From a virus (Duplodnaviria > Heunggongvirae > Uroviricota > Caudoviricetes), in the IMG/VR virus record IMGVR_UViG_3300045988_018086, positions 1 through 41,184 of that record: a stretch of 41,184 bases of DNA; one strand, written 5' to 3'. Shown here one piece after another: positions 1 through 33,714 of this stretch. The position numbers and the translations under genes are program-made. Numbering within the stretch: the stretch's first letter is position 1; each line of letters opens with the position of its first letter. The notes beneath the pieces were generated by a model. The model saw only the letters and a list, made by a program, of their open reading frames with translations. It was not told where the DNA came from and made no database searches.

Positions 1-1910
1 CCCGCCCCAACGGCAGCAGCAGCGGCTACAGGTGCCAGGAACGGACCAACAACAGGGATAGCGGCCGTTGACTTATACGCTTCAATAGCTGCGGTGTACG
101 TGGCGATAGTGGCCTGTACGATAGCGAATGCCTTATACGCGCCAGAAGCCTCGCCCAACGCGGACCCGATATTTGAGGCCATGTTACCAAAGGCCGTTGC
201 CGTTGCCTCAGCACGCTTGGTGGCGTATTGCTCGTTGATGGCGTTAAGTGCCGCTTGATACTGTTCCTCTTTAATCAGACCCTGCTCGCGGTACTTATCA
301 GCTACCGCCAGTTTCTGCTGTTCCTGGATATCGAGAAGCTCAAGCTCAGTGGCATTCTGGCCCATAATTTGAGCCATGAAGTCGTCGCCTTTCTGCTGCT
401 TTTCCTGGGCTTCTTTCTGACGTTTATCCAGTTCATCTTGCCGTTTTTGCCCTGCTTCAAGGACAATAGCCGTTTTTGCTTGCTCGTATTCTTTCAGAGA
501 CAACGCGCCCTGGCTGTAAAACTCTTTTGCTTTAGCCAGTTTCTGCTGTTCCTGGGCGTCAATAGCCTTTAACTCGTCGTTGTTCTGACGGGCCAAAGTG
601 TCGAGGTAATCTTGCGCCTGATTGCGCAATTGCTCCGCCTTCTTAGCGGCGGCTTTTGCCGCTTTATCGTCGGCGTTTCCGGTGCCGCCAGTTCCGCCCT
701 TTTTATTAACAAGGCTGGCTAAGTCAATTTCTTGCTTCTTGCGCTCGTCATACTGCTTGCGCTGTTCCTCAATTTCTTTCTTACGCTGCTTAGACCTGTC
801 GGTAATGGCCCGGGATTCCGCCGCTGCGCGTTTTATGCTGGCGGCGTATGCGGCGTCAGCCTCTGCGGTCAGGTTTTTAAATGTGAGCGCTGCCGTTTTG
901 CTCGGGTCAAACACATCAGCAAGGGTCTGACCTAACGCTACAGCGTAATCGTCAATGCGCTGGAACCACGCAATAACCTCATGGAACGTCTGCTGAATGT
1001 CAGGCAACCACTCACGGATAGCATCAGGTATAGCCCCCAGCGAGTCTGACATATCAACGGATTTGTCCTCGGTGTCGTATGCCAGGTCATTCAGGGCATC
1101 AGAAATAAACTTGAACGATTCATTGAACAGTGTCACCCAATCCTGGAGCGTGGCTGCTATCTCATTAGACGCTATGGCGTCGGTGAGTGCCGTGATAGCA
1201 TCTTCCGCTCTCGCGGCTTGCTCACCTACGGCGTCACCAAAACCGGATTGCGCTACCGCAAGAACAAGACCATCGAAGGAGTCGGCGAGGCTCGACAACT
1301 GGCCATCTAAGGTCTTCGAACGCGTCTCCATAGCTCCGGCGAAATCAGTGTTGCCGATGTTTAGCAGGTATTTCTGAATCTCTTCGGAGTTCTTCTTAAC
1401 GGTAGTCGTTACGCCGCGGAACGTGAACGAAACGGTATCTGCCTGTTGGGAAGACTTAATGCCGAACTCTTTCAGCCGCTCAAACTCAAAGGTACTGGCG
1501 TCAGCCACAGCCTCAATCATCTGATTAAGGTCTTTACCCATAGCCGCCGCGGTGTTGCCGTAGGAGATTAACGCCTCTTTGCTGGGATTCAGGCCGAGGG
1601 CTACAAGTTTAGTGAAACCCTCTACCGCCTGATTGAGGCCATACGGGGTTTCTTTTGCGAACTGTTGCAGGACGCTGAAAGCCTTAGCCGCGTTCTCGGC
1701 GCTTCCGGTCATTGTGATGAGGCCGGAATTCAGCTTATCGAAGTTGCGCTGAGAGTCCACCAGCGCACTGAACACCTGTTTGGCGGTTTCCAGACTGACA
1801 ATGGCAGCCGCGGCAGCACCTGCGGCTTTGGTAAGCCCGTTCAGTTGTGATGTGGTTTTATCGACGCCGGTCGAAGATACTCGTACTATCAAGCTAGCGG
1901 TATCAGCCAT
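1..1910 (-). CDS. Tail tape measure protein, N-terminal and central part; ORF is open at the window start
   Basis: ATG at 1910 preceded by GAAGG RBS; long minus-strand ORF with no stop down to position 1 (the + strand ORFs 228..1377 are its antisense); sits downstream of G/GT chaperones as expected for a siphovirus. Confidence 0.65.
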   Translation of the reverse strand, partial: MADTASLIVRVSSTGVDKTTSQLNGLTKAAGAAAAAIVSLETAKQVFSALVDSQRNFDKLNSGLITMTGSAENAAKAFSVLQQFAKETPYGLNQAVEGFTKLVALGLNPSKEALISYGNTAAAMGKDLNQMIEAVADASTFEFERLKEFGIKSSQQADTVSFTFRGVTTTVKKNSEEIQKYLLNIGNTDFAGAMETRSKTLDGQLSSLADSFDGLVLAVAQSGFGDAVGEQAARAEDAITALTDAIASNEIAATLQDWVTLFNESFKFISDALNDLAYDTEDKSVDMSDSLGAIPDAIREWLPDIQQTFHEVIAWFQRIDDYAVALGQTLADVFDPSKTAALTFKNLTAEADAAYAASIKRAAAESRAITDRSKQRKKEIEEQRKQYDERKKQEIDLASLVNKKGGTGGTGNADDKAAKAAAKKAEQLRNQAQDYLDTLARQNNDELKAIDAQEQQKLAKAKEFYSQGALSLKEYEQAKTAIVLEAGQKRQDELDKRQKEAQEKQQKGDDFMAQIMGQNATELELLDIQEQQKLAVADKYREQGLIKEEQYQAALNAINEQYATKRAEATATAFGNMASNIGSALGEASGAYKAFAIVQATIATYTAAIEAYKSTAAIPVVGPFLAPVAAAAAVGA

Positions 1911-2235
1911 GATTTCTACCTTCAAAGATTGCTTCTAAGCCCATGATAATGTCTATCTCGAACAGGCTAAGCTGTTTTTGCGTAACATCGAGATAGGCTT
2001 TCAGGTCTTGCCACGTAACGGATTCTCTTGCAAACAATACTACAGCGTCCTCGCGCACGTGTCGCGTAAACTTAATGTCGCAATACGTCTCAAAGGTGGA
2101 TATAAAAAGGGGCGGGCATTCTGGCCCACCCCGTCGCGCTGCACGTTTTTTCTTATCGATTACACCCATCGCGATAAGCGCCTGTTCGTGTCCGTCAGCT
2201 ATAGAATCAAACTCTCTGATTTTATGCTTATCCAC
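1903..2235 (-). CDS. Tail assembly chaperone, T segment of the G/GT pair (likely expressed by -1 frameshift from the upstream G ORF)
   Basis: ORF lies in the -1 frame relative to 2268..2684 and stays open across that gene's stop codon; position between chaperone G and tape measure. Confidence 0.45.
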   Translation of the reverse strand: MDKHKIREFDSIADGHEQALIAMGVIDKKKRAARRGGPECPPLFISTFETYCDIKFTRHVREDAVVLFARESVTWQDLKAYLDVTQKQLSLFEIDIIMGLEAIFEGRNHG

Positions 2236-8845: not shown

Positions 8846-8848
8846 AAA

Positions 8849-9060: not shown

Positions 9061-9073
9061 ACTACTAACCGTG

Positions 9074-10060: not shown

Positions 10061-10066
10061 ATTCTG

Positions 10067-10693: not shown

Positions 10694-10772
10694 CAGTATG
10701 TCCCCTGGACGTTGGAATCCGGGCCACCCGGATTTACATGTCAAGAATAAATTATTCCAACATACAAGGCAA

Positions 10773-11036
10773 CTATTCCAGAATATTCCTCACGTAATCC
10801 TGCAACATGAACACTTTAAGTCTCAGTTGCCGTACACATTCTGCGTTCTGGACGTCAATAGCTAAATCCTCGTCCGCGTCGTTACTTGGCAGTGCCAGTT
10901 TGCACGGTGGCTGCATCATCGTCGTATCCGGGGATGGAATTGGCGTTTGCGACGGCGCGGGACTTGAGCTGCACGCGCTCAGGGTCAAAAGTGCACACGC
11001 TGCGGCCAGGCGTTTTAATGTACTTAACGACTTCAC
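10773..11036 (-). CDS. Outer-membrane spanin (Rz1-like lipoprotein), partly overlapping the i-spanin gene in another frame
   Basis: Signal peptide with lipobox LSAC, proline-rich mature part; GTG start with AGAGGT RBS; overlaps 10882..11268. Confidence 0.65.
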   Translation of the reverse strand: MKSLSTLKRLAAACALLTLSACSSSPAPSQTPIPSPDTTMMQPPCKLALPSNDADEDLAIDVQNAECVRQLRLKVFMLQDYVRNILE

Positions 11037-11268
11037 GGGTGATTACCTCTGATTTCGTCTTGCCTTCGTTATCAGCGGCGGCGGCCTTCGATTCATCCTG
11101 CTGCTGCCGTTGTGTTTTCTTAGCTAACTCAGCCTGTGCTTTCTGCTGTTGCTGCGAAACGAGATTCGCCCGGCCTCCGTTCCAGCCGCTGCGATACTGG
11201 TAGATGCCGTGTGCGTAAGCCAGGATGATGAAACATGCTCCCGCTACGACAGTTGCTTTAAGATTCAT
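10882..11268 (-). CDS. Inner-membrane spanin (Rz-like)
   Basis: N-terminal transmembrane segment followed by Gln/Ala/Lys-rich helical periplasmic domain; AAAGGGGA RBS. Confidence 0.65.
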   Translation of the reverse strand: MNLKATVVAGACFIILAYAHGIYQYRSGWNGGRANLVSQQQQKAQAELAKKTQRQQQDESKAAAADNEGKTKSEVITREVVKYIKTPGRSVCTFDPERVQLKSRAVANANSIPGYDDDAATVQTGTAK

Positions 11269-11290
11269 GTTTCCCCTTTCTCGATAAGTA

Positions 11291-11320
11291 AAGCCCCGCC
11301 TTAAAGCGGGGCTTTACTTA
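11291..11320. terminator. Hairpin (AAGCCCCGC-loop-GCGGGGCTT), candidate terminator/attenuator at the end of the conserved leader
   Basis: 9-bp GC-rich stem; moderate U-run on both strands. Confidence 0.4.
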
Positions 11321-11375
11321 TCATTTAAACATAGAAACGGCGTAATCTCAGTAAACCAGTTACTTTTTACACAAG

Positions 11376-11525
11376 CAATAGAGTATGGCCCTTCCGAACG
11401 CGTCAGCGTAACTACACTCAGGACTTACGTCCCGCTCCGTTACCTGCCCGCGCCGCGGTCGCTTGTTCATACTTCACAAGCTCAGGTGGAGCTTAGCACA
11501 TTTTTGGTGAAAAGTCAACTATTCG
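11376..11525 (-). promoter_or_regulatory. Copy A of a ~145-bp conserved element: promoter TTGACT-N17-TGcTAAGCT (minus strand, approx 11518 to 11490) plus conserved transcribed leader
   Basis: Blocks identical or near-identical to 23041..23190 (same orientation); promoter hexamers at same spacing in both. Confidence 0.5.
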
Positions 11526-11582
11526 AATAGTTTATTCCAACATTTACAATTGAGTGGAATAACTGGAATAATCACAGGCACT

Positions 11583-11607
11583 AAAAAGCCCCTTTCGGGG
11601 CTTCAGT
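11583..11607 (-). terminator. Intrinsic terminator (AGCCCC-TTTC-GGGGCT plus T5) after the Ig-like protein gene
   Basis: Stem and U-run on minus strand. Confidence 0.55.
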
Positions 11608-12069
11608 TTATTCTGGCTTAGTAACCTTCGCTGCTTTACTTACGGCCTCTATACCATCGGCATCAGTGACTTTAACGAAGTATTCACCAACTGCGTTAAC
11701 CGTCAGAGACAGAGCCTCTTCCGGGGCGTTTACCACTTCCTTCCCGTCTTTGTACCAGGTCAGCGCATATGGTGCTTTGCCCGCCTTAACTTCGACAGCG
11801 ATATTTGCGCTGCCGTCTGCCAGTTCCGTGTCTTTCGGTTGTACGGAGAAATACACATCACCGGCATCCGCCAGGTACTGAATCTCATAAAGCATACCTG
11901 CCGCTGGCAGCGCAATACCGGTCTTGTCCGCAAACGGCATATCGTCCACTGGTGTTCCGAGTACACTTTCGTCTTCAATAAACACCACGTTCTCGCCAGA
12001 GCCAGACACGCGGGAGTACTGTACTACGCGACGCGAAGGTACGTCGGTTACTTTGAAAAAGCCCATCAT
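11608..12069 (-). CDS. Ig-like domain protein (possible capsid decoration protein)
   Basis: Beta-rich sequence with ALTWYKDG motif typical of bacterial Ig-like domains; position after head morphogenesis gene. Confidence 0.45.
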   Translation of the reverse strand: MMGFFKVTDVPSRRVVQYSRVSGSGENVVFIEDESVLGTPVDDMPFADKTGIALPAAGMLYEIQYLADAGDVYFSVQPKDTELADGSANIAVEVKAGKAPYALTWYKDGKEVVNAPEEALSLTVNAVGEYFVKVTDADGIEAVSKAAKVTKPE

Positions 12070-13112
12070 TAATCCCCTTTCAGATAATCAGCAACACGTT
12101 TATCGAGTTCCGCCATCTGCTTAAGCGTGAGCGGATTCCCGAAACCATCTACAGATATTACGCGAAACTCTTCCGGCGATATACCGCTGTTACGGAAAAT
12201 CTTACCTCGCACCGGGCCGAGCGCCTGGTCCTGAAACCACGCCGGTTGTTGTTTAAGGAACTCGTAGTAAGTGGTGTCTACGCTTACCTGAGTGCCACCT
12301 TCCGCGCCTTTAGCCGCGCGTTTTGCGCCTTTATCGAGGAAGTCGAACTCGGAACTGATTACCGGAGCCGTGCACGACCGGCAGTTCGGATGGGCAGGGG
12401 GCATCGGCCCCTTACCAATTTCCCACGTCATCCCGTCTCTGACCCTGCAAATCGTACTGGTGCGGCTGTCAAGCGTTGACACCCACTCGTACTTCTCTAT
12501 GATGTCGTCGTTCTGGCGGTACGTCTCGTTACGGGCTTCGTTGGACACGTGAGACAGCGCGGTGCGGATGACGGTAGCGGCGTTACGCTCAGAGATGTCA
12601 GCCAGCCCACCGGCGCCTACTACATTCTTAACAATCTGCCGTGTTGTTTGACCTTGTACAAAGCCCATCTTAACGCCGGTTACAAGACGTGCTACTTCCG
12701 TTTCACCCCAGCCCGCCATCAGCTTAGTGAAATCGACAGGCTTGTCGCTTAATGAGAGCGGCTGAAACTCGGCAGCGGCCCACACCTGTTCAGCGGTAGG
12801 CGTAACAAATTCCGCATTAACGTTGGCCGTCAGCGTTTTTACGTTCCACTCAGCCTCATATGCCGCCAGTTCCTTAAGGTCATCTGTCAGCTTTGTTTGC
12901 CAGTCGCCCGTAAGTCCGGTCAGTGTTTCTTCCAGGTCACGTAACAGTTTATTCAGTCGTGCAGTGCTCCGACTGTCGTCACCGAATAACAGCACCTGCC
13001 GTTTGATTTCGTCCCGCATTTCCTGAAGGAACGGCGCGAGGTCTTTCACCTCACCGGATGCGGTGCGTTGCAGCCATATCTGGTGACTGATTAGGGATGT
13101 AAGTAAGCTCAT
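12069..13112 (-). CDS. Minor head / head morphogenesis protein (MuF / SPP1 gp7 family); start at ATG 13112
   Basis: Signature LDSRTSTIC...HPNCRC; AGGAGGG RBS before ATG 13112. Confidence 0.65.
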   Translation of the reverse strand: MSLLTSLISHQIWLQRTASGEVKDLAPFLQEMRDEIKRQVLLFGDDSRSTARLNKLLRDLEETLTGLTGDWQTKLTDDLKELAAYEAEWNVKTLTANVNAEFVTPTAEQVWAAAEFQPLSLSDKPVDFTKLMAGWGETEVARLVTGVKMGFVQGQTTRQIVKNVVGAGGLADISERNAATVIRTALSHVSNEARNETYRQNDDIIEKYEWVSTLDSRTSTICRVRDGMTWEIGKGPMPPAHPNCRSCTAPVISSEFDFLDKGAKRAAKGAEGGTQVSVDTTYYEFLKQQPAWFQDQALGPVRGKIFRNSGISPEEFRVISVDGFGNPLTLKQMAELDKRVADYLKGD

Positions 13113-13156
13113 GTGCCCTCCTGTAGTATCACCAGTGTAACGCATAAAAATAATAT

Positions 13157-13185
13157 TTGCAGACACCAATATAATAGGGTACTAT
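13157..13185 (+). promoter_or_regulatory. Promoter TTGCAG-N17-TACTAT with AATAG-N4-CTATT operator, near-identical to 2793..2821
   Basis: Identical 24-nt core CCAATATAATAGGGTACTATTCA; 27 nt upstream of ATG 13213. Confidence 0.5.
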
Positions 13186-13212
13186 TCATTTAACTTAAAC
13201 AGGAGATGCAAA

Positions 13213-13734
13213 ATGGTTACTACAGTAATTACTTTCCCCGCGTATGTAGGGGCGAAAATCTGCAGGGCTAAAAATGACGTACGCTACTACCTGAACGCTT
13301 TTTACATAGACCCTGAAGGGTTGATAGTGTCTACGGACGGTCATAGATTGTTCTGCGACAATGTGAAGACAAACGTTGAAACGGGAGTTCTCATTGACAC
13401 CAAAGGGAGGGAGCCTTCTAAATTTAACTACGCGGAGGTAGACCACGACAACGGCAGCGTTTCTTTCTATGACGATAGTCGTGCGCTTATATGTACACTT
13501 CCGGTGGATGTTGTAGACGGAAAATTTCCTGACTGGCGACGCGTGGCGCGCATTACACCGGATGCCGTCGGTAGCATAGGGTTCACTCTGCGCTATTTGG
13601 CAGACGCGTACAAGATTTCTAAGGCATACAAAAATGAAATTGCTCGTTTCGATTTCCAGGACCAAACCAGAGGATGCAAAATATCGTTTTCAGACACTGC
13701 GTTTATGGTGCTAATGCCCGCAAGATTTAAATAA
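13213..13734 (+). CDS. DnaN (beta sliding clamp)-like protein, truncated: domain II plus C-terminal half of domain III, no domain I
   Basis: Blocks DVRYYLN..TDGHRL, VDGKFPDWRRV and C-terminal MVLMPARF match E. coli DnaN DVRYYLNG..TDGHRL, VDGRFPDYRRV and YVVMPMRL as I recall that sequence; AGGAG RBS; own promoter and terminator. Confidence 0.55.
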   Translation: MVTTVITFPAYVGAKICRAKNDVRYYLNAFYIDPEGLIVSTDGHRLFCDNVKTNVETGVLIDTKGREPSKFNYAEVDHDNGSVSFYDDSRALICTLPVDVVDGKFPDWRRVARITPDAVGSIGFTLRYLADAYKISKAYKNEIARFDFQDQTRGCKISFSDTAFMVLMPARFK

Positions 13735-13738
13735 AACT

Positions 13739-13760
13739 AAGGCCCCATTGCGGGGCCTTT
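13739..13760. terminator. Bidirectional terminator hairpin (AAGGCCCC-ATTG-CGGGGCCTT)
   Basis: GC stem with T-runs on both strands between convergent genes. Confidence 0.55.
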
Positions 13761-13764
13761 TTCT

Positions 13765-15249
13765 TTACTCCTGTTGTTGCTGCGCCGACTGCGGAATTTC
13801 TCCCGCTACCTGAGTAACCGCACCTAACGGCAGTGGTGCGTCCTCAATAGCGTTCTGGATGTCTTCGTCCGTCCAGTCAGTTACGCCCGCCTTACGCAAT
13901 GCCGCGTAATAAGCTGTAGCTGGTAACAGGCCCGCGTTAATATCCGCCATCCACTGCGCGCGGTCCTGAGCGGTCATTGGTTGCAGGAAGAACTCCATGT
14001 TCAGTTTGAACTCAATTTCAGTGCTGTCGCTAATCCCAAGCATACCCGCGACCCAGCGCAACGCATCGGTATACGCCATGCTTACGTTACGTGCGATTGT
14101 TGCCATAACGGACGTATCAGCGCCGCGTTGCAGGCGTGCCGATTCCGCGGTGATTTGCTGCGTCGGGGTAATAAGCTGTGCACCAATCTGGATTGCCTGG
14201 TTCTCTTTATCCAACATGTTCTGCTTGGCTAGGTTGTTCTCACCGGCCTGGACCAGAAACGCATTGCCGCCGTAACCGATGTTATGGCCAGAACGTGACC
14301 CCATACGCACTCCGTGAGGGTTGGCTTCTTTCCATTGTCCCATGCTCATGTTCTCACCGGGGGCGATGAACAGAGTAGGCTGGCCTACGACGAAGCTGGA
14401 CTCCTCATTGTCCGCGCTGTTGCGGAAGTGCCCGATATTAAGTTCAGCCAACGGCAGCAAAGGTGCATCGTCAGGGGTTGAGTCGTTATTTCCCGCGCCG
14501 ATGAACGTGAACGGAATCACCCCGACCGGAATATTACCGAGTTTCGGGAATATTTCGATATAGCCACCTTCCGTCAGTGCACCTTTCTGGTTAAAGCGGT
14601 ACAGACGCTGGCGATACTGGCCTTCGAAAATATCAAGGACTCGGTATTGCTCGCCGTAGTTGGGGCTGAACTCATCCGCGCCATCGGTGTACTCGTATTC
14701 CTCACGCAATACAACCATAACCACACGATTAACAGACCCGACGCGCTGGAGACGCCAGTTGATGATATTCTCTGCGGTGTAGAAAGCGATTGTTGGGTTT
14801 AGTAAACCCTCGTTTTGCTCTGCCATGGTAGCTACTTCTACCGCGGGGGCGTCAACCAGCAAGCCACCGCGACCAACAGCATCAATCTCATACAGAGTAT
14901 CCTGTGCGTGCTGCCACAGGCCAACGCCCGACCCGTCACAGTTAGTGGTCAGGTATTCCATCTGAGACGGAATAATCATCTCTGGGTCTTTGCGCATTAC
15001 GCTGCCGACCATGCCTGAAAGCGTTCGCTTGGTGAAGTTGTAGCAAATTGCCCCCGCTTCGTATTCAGCCTGACGCTGGCGACCGTAAACCGGGTCCGGC
15101 TCGTTCTTACTGACGTCACGTAGATACGATGTCAGGTCGCCAGAAAGCGCATGTCGCACCTTCTGCCACTTAGGGAAATACTCTTCGTACTGGCGGTGGC
15201 GGGTTTTAACGTTCTGCCCTTGCCCTGCGTTAATGTTTGCGGAAACCAT
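13765..15249 (-). CDS. Portal protein
   Basis: 494 aa, immediately downstream of terminase large subunit; AGAGGA RBS. Confidence 0.65.
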   Translation of the reverse strand: MVSANINAGQGQNVKTRHRQYEEYFPKWQKVRHALSGDLTSYLRDVSKNEPDPVYGRQRQAEYEAGAICYNFTKRTLSGMVGSVMRKDPEMIIPSQMEYLTTNCDGSGVGLWQHAQDTLYEIDAVGRGGLLVDAPAVEVATMAEQNEGLLNPTIAFYTAENIINWRLQRVGSVNRVVMVVLREEYEYTDGADEFSPNYGEQYRVLDIFEGQYRQRLYRFNQKGALTEGGYIEIFPKLGNIPVGVIPFTFIGAGNNDSTPDDAPLLPLAELNIGHFRNSADNEESSFVVGQPTLFIAPGENMSMGQWKEANPHGVRMGSRSGHNIGYGGNAFLVQAGENNLAKQNMLDKENQAIQIGAQLITPTQQITAESARLQRGADTSVMATIARNVSMAYTDALRWVAGMLGISDSTEIEFKLNMEFFLQPMTAQDRAQWMADINAGLLPATAYYAALRKAGVTDWTDEDIQNAIEDAPLPLGAVTQVAGEIPQSAQQQQE

Positions 15250-15260
15250 TTGTTGTCCTC

Positions 15261-16511
15261 TTAAAGTGCGAAAGTCACCGGGATGTTGATTACTGGTTTA
15301 ACCACCGGCATCTCGTAAACTACAGGATAGCCGAGAGCATCCGCCATATGGTCAATGATGCCGTCTTTAGCTGGCTCTCCGTTATCATCGTATGCCTGCT
15401 GCTCCAGCGTCTTCGCTATCTCGGGGCATAAGTGGTCATTAACCCACAGCTTACCTTTTTCCAGTGCGGTATTCACGGCTAAAACACGGTCTTTAACCGG
15501 AGGGTTGGCGGATTTAGCGCGAACATCGAAACCGGCCTGCTGGAGTAACGCAATATCTGAGATTGACGCCGAGTTGGTCTTGCGGTTCTTGCCGCTGGCG
15601 TCCGGGTAAACGACTATGCGGTGGCCCTGCGACTTCCACTTCTCAGTAATTACACGCACGGTGTCCGGCGTATCAAACAGACCTTTCAGTTCTGCCACCG
15701 CGTGCCAGCCGTCTTTACGTTGCACATACACGGCGCTGGCGTTCTTCGTAACGTTGAAGTCCTGCCCGATGTACAGTGTATCGCCCGGTTGAATTGTCTC
15801 TTTGCTGCGGTGCTTGCGACGGTCATACGCATAATACACGCTGCCGGATGTCAGGTTAACGAACTCACCGTTCAGGTACGCGTTAATCAGTTGCGCGGGG
15901 TAAGTCTCGGTCAGTGAGCTAATGTAGTCAGGCGGCAGGAATCGCGCGTTCTCGTGTGTAGAAGCCTGCACCATCGAGTAACTCGGCGTCGGGTTCTCTT
16001 TGAACTTGGCGTAGACGAACTTGAACCCTTCCGGTGTCGTGGTGACAGAGATGTGGTTAGTTACGCCGGGGATAACCAGACGCATACGGGCGACTATTTT
16101 GTTCCACGCCAGCTCAGCTTTCTCACGGCTCAATACATCAAGCTCATCCACGACCGCAGCAGCGATTTTGAAGCCGACTATCGAGCCTGGGTTATCCATA
16201 GAACGGCAGATAACTGTACCGAGCACCGTCTTACCGCGAGTAACCACGACTTCTTTGTCGCCAGATTTAACCAGCACATCGAGGCCGAGCAGGTTAGCGG
16301 CTTCCTCAAATGTCGGGTAGAAGATGTCACGGATAGCCGGGTATGTCGGGCCGAAGTAACCCAGGCGCGTACCTGGATGCTTGAGCATAAACGTAAGCAG
16401 GTCAAGGCAGCCAACAAATGTCTTTCCGCTGCCGAAGCCGCCGACATAGGCTTTGTATTTGTTATCGCAATTCAGGAACAGTGCCTGCGGTGCGGATAGC
16501 TTAATACTCAT
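15261..16511 (-). CDS. terL: Terminase large subunit
   Basis: Walker A GGFGSGKT near N-terminus, C-terminal nuclease-like region; overlaps small subunit stop. Confidence 0.8.
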   Translation of the reverse strand: MSIKLSAPQALFLNCDNKYKAYVGGFGSGKTFVGCLDLLTFMLKHPGTRLGYFGPTYPAIRDIFYPTFEEAANLLGLDVLVKSGDKEVVVTRGKTVLGTVICRSMDNPGSIVGFKIAAAVVDELDVLSREKAELAWNKIVARMRLVIPGVTNHISVTTTPEGFKFVYAKFKENPTPSYSMVQASTHENARFLPPDYISSLTETYPAQLINAYLNGEFVNLTSGSVYYAYDRRKHRSKETIQPGDTLYIGQDFNVTKNASAVYVQRKDGWHAVAELKGLFDTPDTVRVITEKWKSQGHRIVVYPDASGKNRKTNSASISDIALLQQAGFDVRAKSANPPVKDRVLAVNTALEKGKLWVNDHLCPEIAKTLEQQAYDDNGEPAKDGIIDHMADALGYPVVYEMPVVKPVINIPVTFAL

Positions 16512-23804: not shown

Positions 23805-26090
23805 ATGTCCGATGTAATTTTATCCTACTCGTGGTCGCGTCGCAACGCGCGGGCTGAGAAAAAGGATATAAACGTCAGAACCACACACACGGCAACACTG
23901 GACGACCTGAAAGAGTTAATCCAGCCACTCGATGCTGTCCGTGACGGAATTAACCCGAAGACCGCGCCCGGTTATATCACCGCCGCGTGCGACTCGACGC
24001 ACAGCACTGTAAAAGACCCGGAAACCGGCGACTTTAAGCAAGCGCGTAAAGGCTTTTTCTATCGCTGTGACGCGTCTGTAAGCAAATCGTCGCTGGCGTA
24101 TCTGGACTTCGACAGCGCAACACCAGAAGAGTATCAGGAAGCGGTGCGCTTAGTTAAACGCAGCCGCCGGGGCATGTGTATCTATACCACGGCATCACAT
24201 ACCGACGAGTCCCCGCGCTTTCGCGTCGTCATGCCGCTGGCCCGTCCGGTTGAAGGTGGTGACATTATCCGTGTTCGTCACGGCTTGCTCGAGCACTTCT
24301 TCAAAGGCATGGGTGCTGACCGCAGCGGGTTCACTCTGTCACAGCCGATGTATCTGCCGCCGGTTGGCGCTACTGTTATCTGGTCGCGTCGCAACGACCT
24401 GATTGACCCGGACGAGTTACTGGAAGGCATCCCCGCCGTTGACGTTAGCAGCGCATCGGATTACCAGATACCGAAAGAACTGCGAACAGCGTTTACCGAT
24501 GCGTTTGAAGCACTGGCGTTCGAGTACGGCGGTATTATGACCCCGCGCGGCCTTAAGATGCCCGCTACGCCGGAACACGCCGAGAACTACAGCGACCCGA
24601 CACCGCGCCCGGATGACTTCCTGCTGTGCTTCCCGCGCGAGGGATATGAAGCGCCTAACGTAACCATGATTCACGACACCGACATTACGGCGACCGAGGG
24701 CATGTCATCGAAAGAGGTGTGGAAGTATGCGTGCGATGCAACCGGGCTGCCGTTCAGTGAAGTCGCAGAGGCCATCGGTTGGGGTGCACGTGAATCTGTT
24801 TCTTGCAGCCTGGACGACCTTGAAGACGACGAGGACTCAGAGGAGGACGAGTTACCGGAACCGGTAAAGGCTGATTTCGTCGTTGAAGGGTACATGCCGT
24901 CGGATTGCATATGGGATATCGTCGGGGAGTCCGGTACGTATAAATCCTTCTATACGCTGGGGATGATGTACCTGAGCGCCGCCGGATACCGGTTTGCGGG
25001 TGCTGACACCCAGCGTTGCCACCATTTCTATATCGACGGTGAAGGCGGCGCAGCTACCCGCACCCGTATCGATGCGCTCGCGGCTAAATATGGCGAGGAA
25101 GGTAAAGATTATGTACATGTTATAGACATGGGTGAAATACTCGGTATGCGAGAGGATAAAAAACTTACAGCACTCATCCGTATGATGCGTGAAACAGCAG
25201 GAGAGGAACCGATCGGTATGATTGCGTTCGATACCCTCAACCAGACGCTGGCCCTGACGATTGATAAGTTTGATGAGAACAGTTCATCAACTGCAATCGG
25301 CATGGGTAAAGTCATCGCTATCCTTAAAAAAGTGCGTGACGCGACTAAAGCTGCGGTAGGCGTTGTACACCATACACCGAAGGGCGGAAAGAAAGCCCGA
25401 GGTAGTGGTGCGCTGTACGCTGGCGTCGATGTGGAGCTGACAATCGAACGCGCGACAGACCGTCAGATAAATGTATACCACTCTAAATTTAAGCATGGGC
25501 CGCAACAGAAGACGGTTGGTATGGTGCTTGAGTCGGTACAGTTCCGCGAAGCCCCGCCACCGAAAGAATACCGCGCGGTTGAGTTCCTCGGTAGCACGGA
25601 GGAATACGGCACAATCGTAAACCTCGACCTGCCTGAGCCGCACAAAGCGCTTGTGCTTATGCCGTGGGGCTTCGAACCGTTCAAGACCGACGAGGAGAAA
25701 GAGCGGGAAGAAGGACTGACTAAGGAAGGTAAAGAAAACGTACGTAGAACCATGGAGAACGCCGTCAACAGTTCGGAAGCCACGATACTGGCGGCGTTTG
25801 AACTGGCGGAAGGAACCTACAACGGCAACGAAGGTATCACGGTAGCCGCGGCAAATAAGCTCGCACAGTCTGACCCCAACGCGAAGGCGTTCAACTCCAA
25901 AGAAGTCATAGAACGCGGAAAGATTAAGAAAATGGTTGAGGCGGGGTATCTTGTACCTGGTACGGACGAAAACAATCAGATAATCCCGGGCCGTTACAGA
26001 TTGAATACCCGAATAACGGACAACAAGATTCCGAAGACAATATACGAACCGAATGAAATGCTGACAGTGACAGAGGGGGATTTGGAATAG
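23805..26090 (+). CDS. Bifunctional primase-helicase: N-terminal archaeo-eukaryotic-type primase (Prim-Pol) fused to RecA-like (AAA_25/DnaB-like) ATPase
   Basis: AEP motifs LDFD (DxD) and TASHTD (sxH); Walker A GESGTYKS, Walker B-like MIAFD, HHTPKGG. Confidence 0.7.
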   Translation: MSDVILSYSWSRRNARAEKKDINVRTTHTATLDDLKELIQPLDAVRDGINPKTAPGYITAACDSTHSTVKDPETGDFKQARKGFFYRCDASVSKSSLAYLDFDSATPEEYQEAVRLVKRSRRGMCIYTTASHTDESPRFRVVMPLARPVEGGDIIRVRHGLLEHFFKGMGADRSGFTLSQPMYLPPVGATVIWSRRNDLIDPDELLEGIPAVDVSSASDYQIPKELRTAFTDAFEALAFEYGGIMTPRGLKMPATPEHAENYSDPTPRPDDFLLCFPREGYEAPNVTMIHDTDITATEGMSSKEVWKYACDATGLPFSEVAEAIGWGARESVSCSLDDLEDDEDSEEDELPEPVKADFVVEGYMPSDCIWDIVGESGTYKSFYTLGMMYLSAAGYRFAGADTQRCHHFYIDGEGGAATRTRIDALAAKYGEEGKDYVHVIDMGEILGMREDKKLTALIRMMRETAGEEPIGMIAFDTLNQTLALTIDKFDENSSSTAIGMGKVIAILKKVRDATKAAVGVVHHTPKGGKKARGSGALYAGVDVELTIERATDRQINVYHSKFKHGPQQKTVGMVLESVQFREAPPPKEYRAVEFLGSTEEYGTIVNLDLPEPHKALVLMPWGFEPFKTDEEKEREEGLTKEGKENVRRTMENAVNSSEATILAAFELAEGTYNGNEGITVAAANKLAQSDPNAKAFNSKEVIERGKIKKMVEAGYLVPGTDENNQIIPGRYRLNTRITDNKIPKTIYEPNEMLTVTEGDLE

Positions 26091-26961: not shown

Positions 26962-27234
26962 ATGATTTACCAACTCTACCGCGCCGTAGACAGGCGGGAT
27001 AGCACAGAGGCGCTATGGCTGTTACGTGCGCCGTCTGGCTCGCACCAGATGGAAGAGATGGCGTACTTAGGCAAAGTACCACGTCCTAAAGATATAGGCC
27101 GTCACGTGTCACACATTAAGCGTACGACATTCGCCAAACCTGACTTTTATGTCTTCGAGTCGATGTATGGGTGGGCGATGCACTGCGACCATAAGACACG
27201 GCATTTAATTGACCAGTGGGAGAACAGGGCATGA
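26962..27234 (+). CDS. Hypothetical protein
   Basis: ORF, stop overlaps next start (ATGA). Confidence 0.4.
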   Translation: MIYQLYRAVDRRDSTEALWLLRAPSGSHQMEEMAYLGKVPRPKDIGRHVSHIKRTTFAKPDFYVFESMYGWAMHCDHKTRHLIDQWENRA

Positions 27235-28481
27235 TTTTAAAAGAACGCGGTGGCAATAACGATGTGCACGCATTACTGTCGCCGTCTGGGGCTAAAAAGT
27301 GGCTGGCGTGCAGTGCATCACTGGCCTGTGAAAAAGATATTCCTAACACGTCAGGTAAAGCCGCGGTATTAGGCACAGCCATGCATACAATAGCCGAGGT
27401 CCATTTAAATCAGTACATCAAAGGCACTGCACTGCCGTTAGATCGTGAAGTTGGTGCTTATGTACTGGACGAGGGCAAAGGCCAGATTAAGGCGCTAATC
27501 AGTCCGATGAAAGGTGCGGTACTGATTACGGCGGACATGATTGAGCAGGTGCGCAAGTACACCGACTACTGCAAAGCGATTATCGATGTGGCGACTTACG
27601 CCAAACTCGAGATGCGTGTCAATCTTACTGAGGTGTTGCATCCGGGGTATGAAGGCGTTGAGACGTTCGGAACTGCTGACCTTGTTGCCGTCCAGGAACT
27701 GGCTAACACCGACGAGCACATGCTTATCATCGGCGACCTGAAAACTGGACGGCATCGTGTCGAAGCGAAAGAAAACAAGCAGCTTATGCTCTATGCTCTC
27801 GGTGTTTACCGCCGGCTCAAGAGACGTTATAACATAACGACTGTTCGTCTGGTCATCTTCCAGCCGTACGCGGGCGGTGCGTCGGAGTGGGACATCTCGG
27901 TTGAAGGCCTGGAACTGTTCGCTAAGTTCGCACAGAAACGGGCACTGTTAGCGCTTGATGCTTATTTCCGTGGAAAGAAGAACCTGAAAGCGTCGGACTT
28001 TAAACCGTCGGTCGATGGTTGCCAGTGGTGCCGGTTCTCTGAACAGTGTGCCGCGCGTACAAAGACGGTTAATTCTGTACTGGCGGAAGAACTTGAAGAC
28101 GACTTTGTGCTGGAACTGACGACGGAGCAACTCGTAGTTGAGTATGAGAAGTTGCCGCTGTTACGCCAGCACATCGACAAGGTTGAGAAAGCGATGACCG
28201 CCGCATTGCATTCCGGTAAGAAAGTTCCTGGGTACAAGCTGGTTGAAGGTAAGATGGGCAACCGTGCGTGGAAAGATGCCGATGCGATTGAAGTGTCACA
28301 CGGCGACATTCTCAAAAAAGAGGTATTGATGACCCCTACGGAGGCAGCAAAAGTTCTTTCGGCGGATGAGATGGCAGCGCTTGAGCCGTTTATTACCCGT
28401 AAGCCAGGCGCACCATGTGTCGCAACGGCAGACGACAAACGTCCTGAGTGGAATCAGGTTAGTGAAGAAGATTTGGAATAA
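27231..28481 (+). CDS. PD-(D/E)XK-family exonuclease (DUF2800/Cas4-RecB-like) with C-terminal Cys cluster; start at ATG 27231
   Basis: N-terminal SPSGAKKWLACSAS motif, GDLKTG...E.K core, C-terminal CQWCRFSEQC. Confidence 0.6.
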   Translation: MILKERGGNNDVHALLSPSGAKKWLACSASLACEKDIPNTSGKAAVLGTAMHTIAEVHLNQYIKGTALPLDREVGAYVLDEGKGQIKALISPMKGAVLITADMIEQVRKYTDYCKAIIDVATYAKLEMRVNLTEVLHPGYEGVETFGTADLVAVQELANTDEHMLIIGDLKTGRHRVEAKENKQLMLYALGVYRRLKRRYNITTVRLVIFQPYAGGASEWDISVEGLELFAKFAQKRALLALDAYFRGKKNLKASDFKPSVDGCQWCRFSEQCAARTKTVNSVLAEELEDDFVLELTTEQLVVEYEKLPLLRQHIDKVEKAMTAALHSGKKVPGYKLVEGKMGNRAWKDADAIEVSHGDILKKEVLMTPTEAAKVLSADEMAALEPFITRKPGAPCVATADDKRPEWNQVSEEDLE

Positions 28482-28567: not shown

Positions 28568-29194
28568 ATGGGTATTAAACTGAATCTGCGTAAAGTAAAC
28601 ACTGCATGGGTTAACGTATTCGAACGCGAAAAAGACCGTGAAAACGATGATGGCTCAATCACTAAAGGCCAGTACAGCGCGACTATCATCCTGCCGTCTG
28701 GCCACGCACAAATCGACGCGCTCTACGACACCGTTTACGCTGTGGTTGAAGAAGCGTTGGGCGCAGCTGCCGCTGAGAAGTGGATGAAGTCCAACTACGG
28801 CGAAGGTAAGCACATGGATAAATGTGCGATTAAAGACATTGCCGAGCGCGACAATCCGTTTGAAGACTTCCCGGAAGGCTTCTACTTCAAGGCGAAGGCA
28901 CAGAAACAGCCACTGATTGTAACCTCTAAAAAAGGCGAGACTCAGGTAGAACAGGACTTCAATGTAGACGGCGAACAGATTGAAGGTGAACAGGTTTACA
29001 GCGGCTGCGTCGCTAACGTAAGCGTTGAAATCTGGTTCAGCCAGAAATACAAAGTCCTCGGCGTTAACCTGCTGGCTATTAAATACGTCGGCGAAGGTAA
29101 AGCGTTCGGCGGTTCTAAAGTAGCTGCAAGTGTCGACGACCTGGAAGACGAAGAAGAAGATGAAGCACCGCGCCGAGAACGTCGTCGCCGTTAA
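28568..29194 (+). CDS. ssDNA-binding protein-like (DUF2815-type) with acidic C-terminal tail
   Basis: Acidic tail DDLEDEEEDEA; paired with upstream PD-(D/E)XK exonuclease. Confidence 0.55.
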   Translation: MGIKLNLRKVNTAWVNVFEREKDRENDDGSITKGQYSATIILPSGHAQIDALYDTVYAVVEEALGAAAAEKWMKSNYGEGKHMDKCAIKDIAERDNPFEDFPEGFYFKAKAQKQPLIVTSKKGETQVEQDFNVDGEQIEGEQVYSGCVANVSVEIWFSQKYKVLGVNLLAIKYVGEGKAFGGSKVAASVDDLEDEEEDEAPRRERRRR

Positions 29195-29253: not shown

Positions 29254-31434
29254 ATGAGTTACCTGTTCTTAGACTTTGAAACATTCTCCGAAGCCGATTT
29301 GAAGAAAGTCGGCTCCTACGCTTACGCCGAACATCCAACCACCGAAGTTCTAATCTGCACATATGCTTTTGACGACGAGCCTGTGCAGGTATGGGATTGC
29401 ACCAACGGCAGCGACATGCCGGGCGATTTGCACCGCGCGTTACGCCGTCTGGTGAAACCAAACAGCCGTATTAAGATGGTGTGGCACAACGGCTCAATGT
29501 TCGACAGGCCCATCATGAAGCACTGCTGGGGTTTTGATATTCCCGTAAGCAACACCATTGATACGATGATTTGGGCGTTTCGTCACGCGCTGCCGGGTTC
29601 ACTCGACGCATTGTGCGAAGTGCTTGGCGTGTCTGCAGACAACGCGAAAGACAAACGAGGCAAAGCGCTTATTCAGCGTTTCTCTAAACCGACGCCGAAG
29701 AACTACAAAATTCGCCGCTACACTGCTGAAACGCACCCGGATGAGTGGGCGCTGTTCATCAAGTACGCCGTTAGCGACATCACCGCGATGCGTGAAGTGT
29801 TCCATAAGTTGCCGCGTTGGGGTAACTCCGAGTTCGAAGACCGTGTACTGGAACTGGACCAGTTAATTAACGACCGCGGGTTTAAGGTCGACGTTGCGCT
29901 GGCGGAAGCCGCAATTGAAGCTGTGGAGAAACACAAGGCACAGTTACAGGAAGAAGCCCAACGTAAATACGGCGGCTCGCTTACAGGTAAGGACTTCCTG
30001 CCGATTCTGCGTGAACTGGCGCCTGCGCATCGCATCCACAACGCGCAGAAGTCTACGCTTAACGACCTGCTTGCTGACGATGATTTACCGGACGACGCCC
30101 GCACGATTATAGAAATGCGCCTCGGGGCGGCATCCACTGCGTCAACGAAATATAACCCGCTGCTGTTAGGCCGCTCGTCTGACGACCGCCGTCGCGGTTG
30201 CATCCAGTATGGTGGGGCTAAACGTACGTTACGATTTGCGGGTAAAGGCTTCCAGCCGCAGAACCTGGCGCGTGGGTACTATCACGATGATGAACTGGAT
30301 AAAGGTATTTCAGCATTACTTAAGGGCCGAGCACATCGCCGTTTTGATGTAGCCAAGCTAACGGCATCTACGGTTCGCAGCTGCATTATCCCGGAAGCCG
30401 GGTATAAGTTTGTCGTCGCCGACTACTCGAACGTTGAAGGCCGCGGTTTGGCGTGGCTGGCTGGCGAAGAAACCGCGCTTGATACGTTCCGTGCCGGGCT
30501 GGATATTTACTGCGTAACCGCAGGCAAGATGTTCGGCATGGAGCCGGATTACATTAAGAAAGAACGTAAAGACTTACGCCAGATTGGTAAGGCATGCGAA
30601 CTTGGACTTGGCTACGCGGGTGGTGTCGGCGCATTCGTACAGTTCGCCAAGAACCTCGGCCTTGACCTTGTTGATATGGCAAAAACAATGGACGGGACTT
30701 TCCCCGACCACATCTGGGCTGCTACCGCACGTGGATATGAGTGGGCGCGTATTCAGGAAGCCAAGCGACCACCACGTCCAGGTGAAAATGATGACCGACC
30801 ATCTTATATTCTTGATAAGAAAGTGTGGCGTACCTGCGACGCTATCAAGCGTATGTGGCGTGAGTCACACCCGGAAACAGTAGCTTTCTGGCGGGATATT
30901 GAAGACGCAGCTATGGCAGCTATCCGCAATCCGGGCAAAGAGTTCACCGCAGGGCCGCGGGGAGTTAAGTTTTCGCGCAACGTAGAAACGGACAACAACG
31001 GCAACAAAGTCGCCGGTTGGTGGTTGCGTATGACGTTGCCGTCTGGTCGAGTTATGTCATACCCTGGCGTCGGGTTAAGCGTGTCGAAAGAGACAGACGA
31101 AGACGGGAAGGTGTCTACCAACGTGCGCATCAAGTACCAGGGCGAAAACCAGTTAACCCGTCAGTGGGGCTTCCAGTACACCTACTCTGGTAAACTGGTG
31201 GAAAACTGCACTCAGGCGCTGTGCCGTGATTTGTTGGCTAATGCACTGCTGAACGTCGAAGCAAACGGCTACCCGATTGTGCTTCATGTTCACGATGAGA
31301 TTATCTGCGAGACACCAGATTTACCAGAATACAATGTCGCAGAACTGGAACGATTGATGTGCGAATTACCAGAGTGGGCCGAGGGGTTCCCTCTTGTAGC
31401 AGAAGGCGCGGAGATGAAGCGTTATGCCAAGTAA
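29254..31434 (+). CDS. DNA polymerase, family A, with N-terminal 3'-5' exonuclease domain
   Basis: Exo I DFET, Pol motif A DYSNVEGR, motif B RQIGKACELGLGYAGG, motif C HVHDE. Confidence 0.85.
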   Translation: MSYLFLDFETFSEADLKKVGSYAYAEHPTTEVLICTYAFDDEPVQVWDCTNGSDMPGDLHRALRRLVKPNSRIKMVWHNGSMFDRPIMKHCWGFDIPVSNTIDTMIWAFRHALPGSLDALCEVLGVSADNAKDKRGKALIQRFSKPTPKNYKIRRYTAETHPDEWALFIKYAVSDITAMREVFHKLPRWGNSEFEDRVLELDQLINDRGFKVDVALAEAAIEAVEKHKAQLQEEAQRKYGGSLTGKDFLPILRELAPAHRIHNAQKSTLNDLLADDDLPDDARTIIEMRLGAASTASTKYNPLLLGRSSDDRRRGCIQYGGAKRTLRFAGKGFQPQNLARGYYHDDELDKGISALLKGRAHRRFDVAKLTASTVRSCIIPEAGYKFVVADYSNVEGRGLAWLAGEETALDTFRAGLDIYCVTAGKMFGMEPDYIKKERKDLRQIGKACELGLGYAGGVGAFVQFAKNLGLDLVDMAKTMDGTFPDHIWAATARGYEWARIQEAKRPPRPGENDDRPSYILDKKVWRTCDAIKRMWRESHPETVAFWRDIEDAAMAAIRNPGKEFTAGPRGVKFSRNVETDNNGNKVAGWWLRMTLPSGRVMSYPGVGLSVSKETDEDGKVSTNVRIKYQGENQLTRQWGFQYTYSGKLVENCTQALCRDLLANALLNVEANGYPIVLHVHDEIICETPDLPEYNVAELERLMCELPEWAEGFPLVAEGAEMKRYAK

Positions 31435-32101: not shown

Positions 32102-32293
32102 ATGAAACACGAATATGACCGCAAGCCAGCACGTGACATCGTACCTGGCGATATGATTTTCAACGTTAAGACCCGCCACCCTGTTGCCGTTGATACGGTG
32201 TACGTCGAGTCGAACGGTAAACTGGTTATCGAAGATGTAACTGGTAACGTTACGGCGTTCGGGCGTAAAGAGTTAGTTCTGGTGCTGAAATGA
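32102..32293 (+). CDS. Hypothetical protein
   Basis: ORF with ATGA overlap to helicase gene. Confidence 0.4.
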   Translation: MKHEYDRKPARDIVPGDMIFNVKTRHPVAVDTVYVESNGKLVIEDVTGNVTAFGRKELVLVLK

Positions 32294-33714
32294 GTAAGTT
32301 TCAAAGGCGCGAGTACCAGAAGCTCATGACTTCGTTCATGTTGCGGCACCATCGCTGCAACATATGGGCAAGCATGGGCGCCGGGAAGACGGGCAGTGTC
32401 CTGTGGGCTTTAAACCGACTGTTCCGCAATGGGCAACTTAATGACGACGACCGCGTGTTAATCCTCGCCCCGTTGCGTGTTGCGTCTGGCACGTGGCCCG
32501 CAGAGCAAGAGAAATGGAACTTTCCCTGTCTGAGTGTCGTTGACGCGACCGGTTCAGAGAAGCGCCGCATCGCGGCGCTGGAATCAGACGCTAACGTGGT
32601 GTGTACAAACTACGAAGTTATCGAATGGCTGATTGACTACTACGGCAAAGACGACTGGCCTTTTACCGTTATCGTCGCCGACGAAAGCACGAAGCTGAAA
32701 TCATTCCGCAGCCGTTCAGGTGGAAGCAAGAGGGCGAAGGCGCTAAGTAAAGTTGCGTTCGGTAAGGTTAAGCGTTTCATTAACCTGACTGGTACGCCGT
32801 CGCCGAACGGCCTCAAGGACTTATGGGGCCAGAACTGGTTTATCGACGCGGGTGAGCGCCTCGGTTCTTCATACACAGCATTCACCGACCGCTGGTTTAA
32901 CTCGGTACAGAAAGGCAAATCAGCGATGGCGCGTGAGTATCATGCGCGCCCTGGTGCGGATAATGAAATCCATCAGAAGATGAAGGACATTAGTCTCACG
33001 ATTGACGCCGCTGAGTGGTTCGGTTGCGAAGCGCCAATTATCGTCCCTGTTGAAATTGACCTGCCGAAGAAAGCACGTCAGGCGTACATAGATATGGAGG
33101 AAAAGTTATTCGCAGAACTGGAGAGCGGAGAAGTTGAAGCCGCTAACGCGGCGGCAAAGACGTCAAAGTGCTTGCAAATTGCTTCCGGTGCCGTGTATGT
33201 GACGGGTGACGACGGAGAAGCAACCAAAGACTGGGAGAAAGTGCACGACACGAAACTGGATGCGCTGGAGTCAATTGTTGATGAGTTACAGGGCGCGCCG
33301 TTACTGGTGGCCTATCAGTTCAAGCACGAACTGGAGCGCATCCTTAAGCGATTCCCGCAGGCGCAGGCGTTCGCCAAAGGTGCCAAGGGTAATAAGCAGA
33401 TGGAAGCGTGGAACCGTGGCGAAATCGAAATCCTATGCGTGCACCCCGCGTCAGCCGGCCATGGCTTGAATTTACAGGACGGCGGACATCATCTGGCGTT
33501 TATTTCGCAAGGCTGGAACCTTGAGCACTATTTGCAGGTTGTCGAGCGTATAGGCCCGGTGCGCCAGAAGCAGGCGGGCCACGAGCGACCAGTGTTCATC
33601 TATCACATCGTTGCTAAAGACACGCTGGACGAGGTTGTTGCCTCGCGTACTGACGAGAAGAAATCGGTCCAGGAAGAGTTGCTTAATTACATGAAGAGAC
33701 GAGGTAAGAAATGA
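32290..33714 (+). CDS. Superfamily 2 helicase (SNF2/DEAD-like)
   Basis: Motif I GAGKTG, motif II DESTKLK, motif III LTGTPSPNG, C-terminal helicase domain. Confidence 0.75.
   Translation: MSKFQRREYQKLMTSFMLRHHRCNIWASMGAGKTGSVLWALNRLFRNGQLNDDDRVLILAPLRVASGTWPAEQEKWNFPCLSVVDATGSEKRRIAALESDANVVCTNYEVIEWLIDYYGKDDWPFTVIVADESTKLKSFRSRSGGSKRAKALSKVAFGKVKRFINLTGTPSPNGLKDLWGQNWFIDAGERLGSSYTAFTDRWFNSVQKGKSAMAREYHARPGADNEIHQKMKDISLTIDAAEWFGCEAPIIVPVEIDLPKKARQAYIDMEEKLFAELESGEVEAANAAAKTSKCLQIASGAVYVTGDDGEATKDWEKVHDTKLDALESIVDELQGAPLLVAYQFKHELERILKRFPQAQAFAKGAKGNKQMEAWNRGEIEILCVHPASAGHGLNLQDGGHHLAFISQGWNLEHYLQVVERIGPVRQKQAGHERPVFIYHIVAKDTLDEVVASRTDEKKSVQEELLNYMKRRGKK

Follow-up and report, generated by a model that had tools for sequence, protein, structure and literature searches.

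The DNA analysed here, referred to as the window, comprised all 41,184 nucleotides of IMG/VR virus record IMGVR_UViG_3300045988_018086 (Caudoviricetes). Between its head-morphogenesis and portal genes lies a plus-strand gene encoding a homologue of the bacterial sliding clamp DnaN (beta), hereafter the mini-clamp. An earlier note, made by a model from the letters of the window, had placed a stand-alone plus-strand gene at this position and read its product as DnaN domain II plus the last half of domain III. The position was as described, and the domain assignment was borne out by phmmer, a profile alignment and an AlphaFold2 model. The features of the locus were as follows (window coordinates).

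12069..13112, minus strand: head-morphogenesis gene (Mu F / SPP1 gp7-like), flanking the accessory cassette
13113..13780, plus strand: accessory cassette of 668 bp (upstream region, mini-clamp reading frame and terminator), between the head-morphogenesis and portal genes
13113..13212, plus strand: 100-bp upstream region, read from the sequence
13116-13121, minus strand: ribosome-binding site of the head-morphogenesis gene, inside the cassette's upstream region
13156-13161 and 13180-13185, plus strand: TTTGCA and TACTAT, a weak pair with a spacing of 18
13170-13175, plus strand: TATAAT, a perfect hexamer without a usable -35 element
13201-13205, plus strand: AGGAG, a strong Shine-Dalgarno sequence
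13213..13734, plus strand: mini beta-clamp coding sequence, 173 amino acids, ATG start 7 nucleotides after AGGAG
13739..13769, both strands: GC-rich, bidirectional intrinsic-terminator-like hairpin AAGGCCCC-ATTGC-GGGGCCTT, the hairpin itself at 13739-13759
13765..15249, minus strand: portal gene, flanking the cassette

The 173-residue product contains the segments NDVRYYLN, TDGHRL, VDGKFPDWRRV and MVLMPARFK. It was compared by phmmer with all PDB sequences, and the E. coli beta clamp was matched at an expected value (E) of approximately 1e-6. Residues 16-125 were aligned to beta 144-261, with a weak second stretch pairing residues 120-171 with beta 315-365. The E. coli motifs quoted in the earlier note agreed with this printed alignment. 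A profile built from 78 relatives lifted the match to E=8e-35 and aligned the last third of the protein with beta 313-365 via 'EIGFNvsY...MPMR'. The same profile reached weakly into beta 253-295, as expected given the internal repeat of clamp domains; the third motif was placed as the second half of domain III because of the IGFN..Y and MPMR identities. Overall, 53 of 158 aligned residues (34%) were identical between the mini-clamp and E. coli beta.

Residues 1 to approximately 111 correspond to DnaN domain II (beta ~126-247). Beta ~248-314 is replaced by a linker of about 9 amino acids, and residues ~120-173 match the second of the beta-alpha-beta-beta-beta motifs in domain III (beta 315-366). 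Only three such motifs (IIa, IIb and IIIb) are therefore present, as beta 1-~125 and ~248-314 have no counterpart. The AlphaFold2 model, made with the relatives' alignment, was a compact monomer with a predicted local distance difference test score (pLDDT) of 96.1 and a predicted template-modelling score (pTM) of 0.91. The clamp fold of the individual domains was present and all structural neighbours were clamps. A single rigid superposition covered both parts, so the model keeps the mutual orientation that domain II and the half-domain III have in real clamps. No helix was modelled between residues 59 and 101, nor between strands 59-63 and 73-77, and the model of a distant family member, P0079, keeps a helix at 78-82. 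The second channel-facing helix of domain II is thus predicted to be gone in the subfamily of the window protein.

Family models were matched below their curated thresholds. TIGR00663 scored 19 bits (cut-off 137.65) and PF02767, the DnaN central domain, 17.1 bits (gathering score 27); the latter was the sole Pfam match up to E=10. The N-terminal (PF00712) and C-terminal (PF02768) domain models did not match the mini-clamp. The protein is a DnaN homologue but stands outside the DnaN family as defined, failing its thresholds, its three-domain architecture and its dimer interface. The ratio of nonsynonymous to synonymous substitution rates (dN/dS, omega) relative to the L017 orthologue was 0.12, which indicates purifying selection. 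The gene evolves faster than its neighbours, for which omega was 0.05 (head-morphogenesis gene) and 0.00 (large terminase). An opposite-strand open reading frame at 13195..13665 (156 amino acids) was set aside as the antisense shadow of a gene with hundreds of homologues.

Clamp pocket and ring interface

The beta pocket has been divided into subsite I (R152, L155, T172, G174, H175, R176, L177, P242, R246, V247, V360 and M362) and subsite II (H175, N320, Y323, V344, M362, P363, M364 and R365), and the beta dimer interface has been assigned to I78, F106 and R103 in domain I and I272, L273, E298 and E304 in domain III (PMC11139829). The mini-clamp codons that correspond to pocket-building stretches were as follows.

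13282..13350, plus strand: R24-L46 (RYYLN...TDGHRL), corresponding to beta R152, L155, T172, G174, H175, R176 and L177, the domain II wall of subsite I
13513..13545, plus strand: V101-V111 (VDGKFPDWRRV), corresponding to beta 237-247 including P242, R246 and V247
13585..13596, plus strand: T125-Y128 (TLRY), corresponding to beta N320-Y323 in subsite II
13708..13731, plus strand: V166-K173 (VLMPARFK), corresponding to beta V360, M362, P363, M364 (alanine here) and R365, the C-terminal pocket strand

All 12 subsite I residues were identical in the mini-clamp (R24, L27, T41, G43, H44, R45, L46, P106, R110, V111, V166 and M168). Five of the eight subsite II residues were identical, the substitutions being N320 to T125, V344 to T152 and M364 to A170. 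Position V344 varies even among true clamps. Counted once each, 15 of the 18 published pocket residues were identical, relative to 34% protein-wide. Pocket geometry was retained in the predicted model. The earlier note had expected the ligand-binding cleft to survive and had named four cleft residues to be sought in a model; their equivalents (L46, P106, V111 and M168) were in place within a clamp fold.

Conservation was measured in an alignment of the window protein with 240 representatives (241 sequences). At least 80% conservation was found in 19 columns, 12 of which were pocket residues (hypergeometric p=7e-10), and mean conservation was 0.81 for pocket columns versus 0.34 for the remaining columns. 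The pocket residues between R24 and L46 were 90-99% conserved, with the exception of L46 at 54%, and P106 was invariant. At the position of N320 the family consensus is asparagine and the window protein has threonine. Judged by this alignment, the pocket is what selection preserves.

All of the listed dimer-interface residues map to deleted segments. As aligned, the retained parts comprise exactly the three pocket-building stretches (beta 152-177, 242-247 and 320-365), and the removed parts include both ring-closing faces. The canonical head-to-tail DnaN dimer ring cannot close around DNA, since both interface faces are absent. The earlier note had excluded a normal clamp on the grounds that domain I was missing; the loss extends to the first half of domain III, and so to both faces.

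The accessory cassette and its genome

The window was compared by blastn with phage K1G. The two were collinear at 85-96% identity, broken at window positions 13112/13781, and 36 bp separate the portal gene of K1G from its head-morphogenesis gene. No mini-clamp homologue was found anywhere in K1G by tblastn. The replication genes of the two phages were 92-96% identical. As K1G has the same replisome but lacks the gene, the mini-clamp is not a required processivity factor. The gene was found at this site in only 23 of 169 related records. In vB_Eco_K-02 the slot equivalent to window 13213 onward holds an unrelated 94-amino-acid gene (L002 4115-4399; PHROG 1273, unknown function). The 100-bp upstream region hardly varied among three phages as far as the ATG, even with a different cargo gene. 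The gap between portal and head-morphogenesis genes thus behaves as an exchangeable cargo position, and 13113-13780 is a self-contained accessory cassette ('moron').

Part of the conservation upstream in the cassette can be put down to the head-morphogenesis gene, whose ribosome-binding site sits on the other strand. A sigma-70 consensus scan called no promoter upstream of the mini-clamp, and no inverted repeat or operator was found within 13113-13212. The operator-containing promoter proposed in the earlier note was therefore not recovered; a promoter upstream of the mini-clamp is plausible. The terminator that had been proposed alongside it was found. Its hairpin, unique in the window, is followed by T-runs on both strands (TTTCTTTACT on the plus strand and AGTTTTATTT on the minus strand). 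It is reasonable to infer that the mini-clamp would be expressed early by host polymerase and later opposed by antisense late transcription. For the head genes downstream, the inserted cassette may require a restart signal of its own or supply one.

With the cassette placed between the portal and head-morphogenesis genes, its bidirectional terminator falls midway along the minus-strand late operon. A minus-strand phage promoter overlapping the terminator spot had been predicted by the annotators of fBC-Eco01.

The window belongs to Kagunavirus (Guernseyvirinae), as a complete or near-complete genome, and represents a lytic siphophage of K1-type E. coli. Phage K1G and many Escherichia phages were collinear with it at 85-98% identity. 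The top match to positions 1-19899 was vB_EcoS-UTI89UKE1 (97.8%), and Escherichia phage P AB-2017 (KY295898.1) showed 93% identity over 88% of the first 25 kb. The phage encodes its own replication set, comprising the following genes.

23805..26090: helicase-primase
27216..28481: exonuclease
28568..29194: gp2.5-like single-strand-binding/annealing protein
29254..31434: family A-type DNA polymerase
32290..33714: helicase

No clamp loader gene is encoded by the phage, and no Rfam families or tRNAs were found in the window. On the minus strand at 21381-22982, eight small open reading frames of 42-67 amino acids are closely packed, several abutting or overlapping by a few bases. They lie in a stretch of approximately 2 kb with no open reading frame of 90 amino acids or more. 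The counterpart of this stretch in the K1G RefSeq record (36452-38611) is unannotated.

Relatives on mobile elements and their database labels

A word-indexed search returned 106 relatives, nearly all of 170-240 amino acids. When 1.84 billion cluster representatives (clusters at 50% identity) were searched exhaustively with a profile, 987 clusters were returned at E<=1e-30, the best 150 of which were all of 169-302 amino acids. The size range of the family was about 170-250 amino acids in nearly all clusters. Homologues in related phages, which the earlier note had suggested looking for, were thus plentiful. For the protein, tblastn returned 227 phage records, including phages of Escherichia, Salmonella, Klebsiella, Vibrio, Proteus, Burkholderia and others. 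At least 298 mini-clamp loci were found in IMG/VR, and copies were also found on plasmids, prophages and integrated elements. Many phage proteins of 180-250 amino acids in BFVD had the same fold (template-modelling scores of 0.81-0.87), some of them from phages of Gram-positive hosts. The family signature is RYYLN / TDGHR / DGxFPDWRR / YLxD / MPxR, and all of its residues are present in the window protein.

Neighbouring genes were surveyed at 23 dereplicated IMG/VR loci, and the 92 genes obtained were compared with PHROGs and Pfam. No family was present at more than two loci; the mini-clamp has no conserved phage partner gene. In temperate elements the gene lies among ERF, YqaJ, DnaQ-like, RdgC/NA37, methylase, SSB and PolA genes. 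In Saltrevirus and Cedarrivervirus the mini-clamp is the last gene of a small island that also carries an anti-restriction gene and a ParB/KorB-like gene, and in other phages small islands hold the mini-clamp with anti-restriction protein, Lar, ParB/KorB-like and DUF932 genes. In Dhillonvirus TheodorHerzl and a Cornellvirus a lone mini-clamp runs opposite in strand to the structural genes, at positions that differ from that in the window. In a second Dhillonvirus the mini-clamp directly follows another gene on the same strand.

In a Pseudomonas integrated element (L004 6974-9010) and a metagenomic prophage (L008 6779-8956), the mini-clamp start overlaps the end of the preceding large gene by 8 nucleotides. 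The large gene encodes NA37 (YejK-like) or RdgC+FtsK-gamma, and in both elements the mini-clamp is followed by a homologous open reading frame of 83-103 amino acids (MLTSTPK...RRLDGIF...HDERGYCLGH). The arrangement looks like a conserved three-gene unit tying the mini-clamp to nucleoid- or recombination-associated DNA binders.

Among 230 mini-clamps, 124 run at least 10 amino acids past MPxR, where true DnaN ends (for example P0079, P0075, P0056 and P0047). A [LVIMAT]P.[WF] motif (LPAW, LPSW, VPGW and others) was present in 50 of the 124 extended tails. An Ala-Ala-COOH end, resembling the ssrA/ClpX degron, was present in 68 of 241 mini-clamps (28%). The model of P0079 shows the PAW segment as a short helix (pLDDT ~80) and the last residues as disordered. 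The tails of these relatives might serve as a self-ligand for the pocket, mark the protein for degradation, or do both. The window protein lacks a C-terminal tail.

The window protein matched phrog_3007 at E=1.6e-36. This PHROG, 3007, is the profile family containing the mini-clamp and is labelled 'RusA-like Holliday junction resolvase'. The label is wrong, as the only Pfam match is the DnaN central domain and the structural neighbours are all clamps, and it has been copied into phage records such as NC_031918.1 (gp31), NC_054636.1 (gp36) and OR594180.1. Other records label the gene 'DNA polymerase', 'DNA polymerase III' or 'major head protein', and dozens of GenBank phage records give 'DNA polymerase III sliding clamp/beta subunit'. 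One genome report treats the mini-clamp as an ordinary sliding clamp conferring processivity. No dedicated family model for mini-clamps was present in Pfam, NCBIfam or PADLOC, and no study of the family was found in the literature. The novelty implied in the earlier note held in part: the truncated family is unstudied, but GenBank already labels the gene as a sliding clamp. The homology itself was thus known; no description was found of exactly how the protein is truncated, of how selectively the pocket is kept, of the gene being a cassette or of how large the family is.

Mycobacteriophage Adephagia gp35 (L095 4360-5568) was considered as a relative and rejected (402 amino acids, hhalign probability 0.1%). 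It has been reported as a putative sliding clamp and as among that phage's most toxic genes in M. smegmatis (PMC11373665). Adephagia gp35 is a separate case of a host-harming, clamp-like phage protein.

Interpretation and comparison with known systems

The beta pocket is a hub through which replication, repair, mutagenesis, initiation-control and transposition proteins reach DNA, and is an antibiotic target. Our tentative interpretation, drawn from the comparisons above, is that the mini-clamp may act as a soluble, non-encircling receptor for clamp-binding motifs (CBMs) that competes with host clamps for their partners. This is the most economical reading of a protein that forms no canonical ring, is not needed by the replisome, has no conserved partner and preserves the pocket. 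With domain I and the first half of domain III deleted, the gene encodes a beta paralogue unable to close the canonical ring. Made early, from its own signals and on the strand opposite to the late genes, this paralogue would vie with DNA-loaded beta rings of the host for proteins that bear CBMs. Candidate targets would be the clamp-loader delta subunit, Pol III alpha/epsilon, Hda, Pol I/II/IV/V, MutS/MutL and ligase. Captured proteins might be sequestered or redirected to the benefit of the phage. As the phage has its own PolA-type replisome, the simplest outcome would be interference with clamp-dependent DNA transactions of the host. A monomeric beta mutant still binds DNA and binds delta approximately 50-fold better than the ring, and supports no processive synthesis (PMC11139829). 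Over-expression of Mu MuC is reported to disturb clamp-partner traffic and to lead to lethal over-initiation.

Several points weigh against a CBM receptor. Searches of the literature turned up neither binding nor phenotype data on members of the family. Two subsite II substitutions in the window protein (N320 to T and M364 to A) fall in the pocket itself. CBM-pocket affinities are typically micromolar, so that a sink needs high expression, and the sigma-70 consensus scan called no promoter to drive it. Relatives occur in phages with no annotated replicative polymerase, such as Shigella phage Sf11; sequestering Pol III would be self-defeating there, and a shared target is therefore not simply Pol III. 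An orphan half-domain may require a partner or self-association. Finally, conserved basic positions on the channel-facing helix (K134, K137 and K140) and the placement of the family in replication/recombination modules fit a DNA-associated adaptor equally well.

Such an adaptor, a non-ring processivity or recruitment factor, would lay its helix face on DNA while its pocket brings in an enzyme that bears a CBM. That enzyme, which might be host Pol III, Pol I or ligase or else a phage protein, would be delivered to phage replication or recombination intermediates, in the manner of monomeric beta or herpesvirus UL42. We consider this possible but rather unlikely. The genomic context of the family and the basic residues of the channel-side helix speak for it. 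In the window's subfamily, however, the second channel-facing helix of domain II is lost in the model, and monomeric beta cannot tether Pol III processively (PMC11139829). A clamp-adaptor for the phage polymerase, which the earlier note had also offered, is weakened by the presence of the same polymerase and replisome (92-96%) in K1G without the mini-clamp. Six-frame translations of the phage were scanned for QL[SD]LF-type motifs, and the only consensus CBM in its proteome was QLSLF at 1960-1974 (minus strand), in a tail assembly chaperone. K1G carries the same motif without the mini-clamp, so the two are not co-inherited; the motif was rejected as a mini-clamp partner and is probably a coincidence. 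It lies in the open reading frame 1903..2235 (minus strand), near the C-terminus of the frameshift-extension part of the chaperone (PHROG 15027).

An anti-defence or anti-competitor decoy appears unlikely. Under this explanation the mini-clamp would trap a CBM-bearing immunity or repair nuclease, or block clamp-dependent rivals, the Kagunavirus replisome being clamp-independent. It would account for a hot-swappable cassette under conserved signals and for the stand-alone, opposite-strand gene in or beside the structural module of TheodorHerzl and the Cornellvirus (the second Dhillonvirus having its same-strand neighbour). The small islands with anti-restriction protein, Lar, ParB/KorB-like and DUF932 genes and the faster evolution relative to terminase and head-morphogenesis genes (omega 0.12 versus 0.00-0.05) point the same way. 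The anti-restriction link, however, was seen at few loci only, and ParB-like neighbours at 2 of the 23 loci surveyed. Temperate elements, too, commonly carry the family, in modules for DNA metabolism. No CBM-dependent defence system was found in the literature, and we know of none.

Real clamps contain 12 beta-alpha-beta-beta-beta motifs, with an internal pseudo-dyad in each domain. With three motifs per subunit, two mini-clamps could in principle join their orphan half-domains into a pseudo-domain III across a true dyad, and two such dimers could form a 12-motif ring (4 x 3). The half-domain presumably exposes a surface that its missing twin would usually cover, and must bury it somehow. A true sliding clamp by self-assembly nevertheless seems very improbable: the gene is dispensable within the genus, one channel helix is lost in the subfamily, no clamp loader is encoded and the AlphaFold model is a compact monomer predicted with very high confidence. 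Half of the pockets would also face the wrong side. The homotetrameric, two-faced clamp with pockets on both faces that would result, unlike dimeric beta, trimeric PCNA/gp45 or any known clamp, is to be regarded with equally strong doubt. That the gene is a decaying, functionless remnant of a captured dnaN, as sub-threshold Pfam and TIGRFAM scores might suggest, is effectively refuted by its dN/dS, by a truncated architecture conserved in approximately 1000 clusters at 50% identity, and by its invariant residue pattern, strong Shine-Dalgarno sequence and own terminator.

If the mini-clamp is a CBM receptor, a pocket-only family on mobile elements would represent a mirror-image strategy in which a clamp mimic captures ligands. 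It would reveal the clamp partner that it pays to neutralise or recruit while a phage infects or an element becomes established. A small, soluble, monomeric substitute for the pocket would be available for screening pocket-directed inhibitors, as would a genetic tool to titrate clamp partners in vivo. Misleading labels also matter, since 'sliding clamp' implies processivity and 'RusA-like' is wrong, and both are spreading into genome reports on therapeutic phages.

Relative to E. coli DnaN (PDB 1MMI, 2POL), which has 366 amino acids in three domains with six motifs per subunit, the 173-residue mini-clamp lacks domain I and the first half of domain III. DnaN is an essential part of the replisome, whereas the mini-clamp is a phage accessory gene. 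Full-length phage beta clamps of 345-460 amino acids (Ralstonia phage Heva, Gordonia phage ASerpRocky and Caulobacter phage Sansa; BFVD) are likewise phage-borne DnaN homologues, but they retain all three domains and can act as true clamps. The mini-clamps are a distinct, truncated lineage. The nearest experimental model for their behaviour is the laboratory construct beta I272A/L273A, a monomeric, non-ring clamp that keeps the pocket. That mutant retains all three domains, whereas the mini-clamp is natural, much smaller and also without the delta-touching loop of domain III.

The herpesvirus factors UL42, UL44, BMRF1 and PF-8 have no detectable sequence relation to the mini-clamp. UL42-type factors consist of two complete domains, bind DNA through a strongly basic face and are essential partners of their cognate polymerase, whereas the mini-clamp gene is dispensable and its product has a near-neutral isoelectric point. 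Twort Gp168, a ligand that plugs the clamp pocket, and Mu MuC, which borrows the clamp, both act on the CBM-pocket hub, and SocB is another ligand acting on this hub of the host replisome. Ligands of the Gp168/MuC type occupy the host pocket; the mini-clamp turns this around, as a duplicate of the pocket by which the ligands would be occupied.

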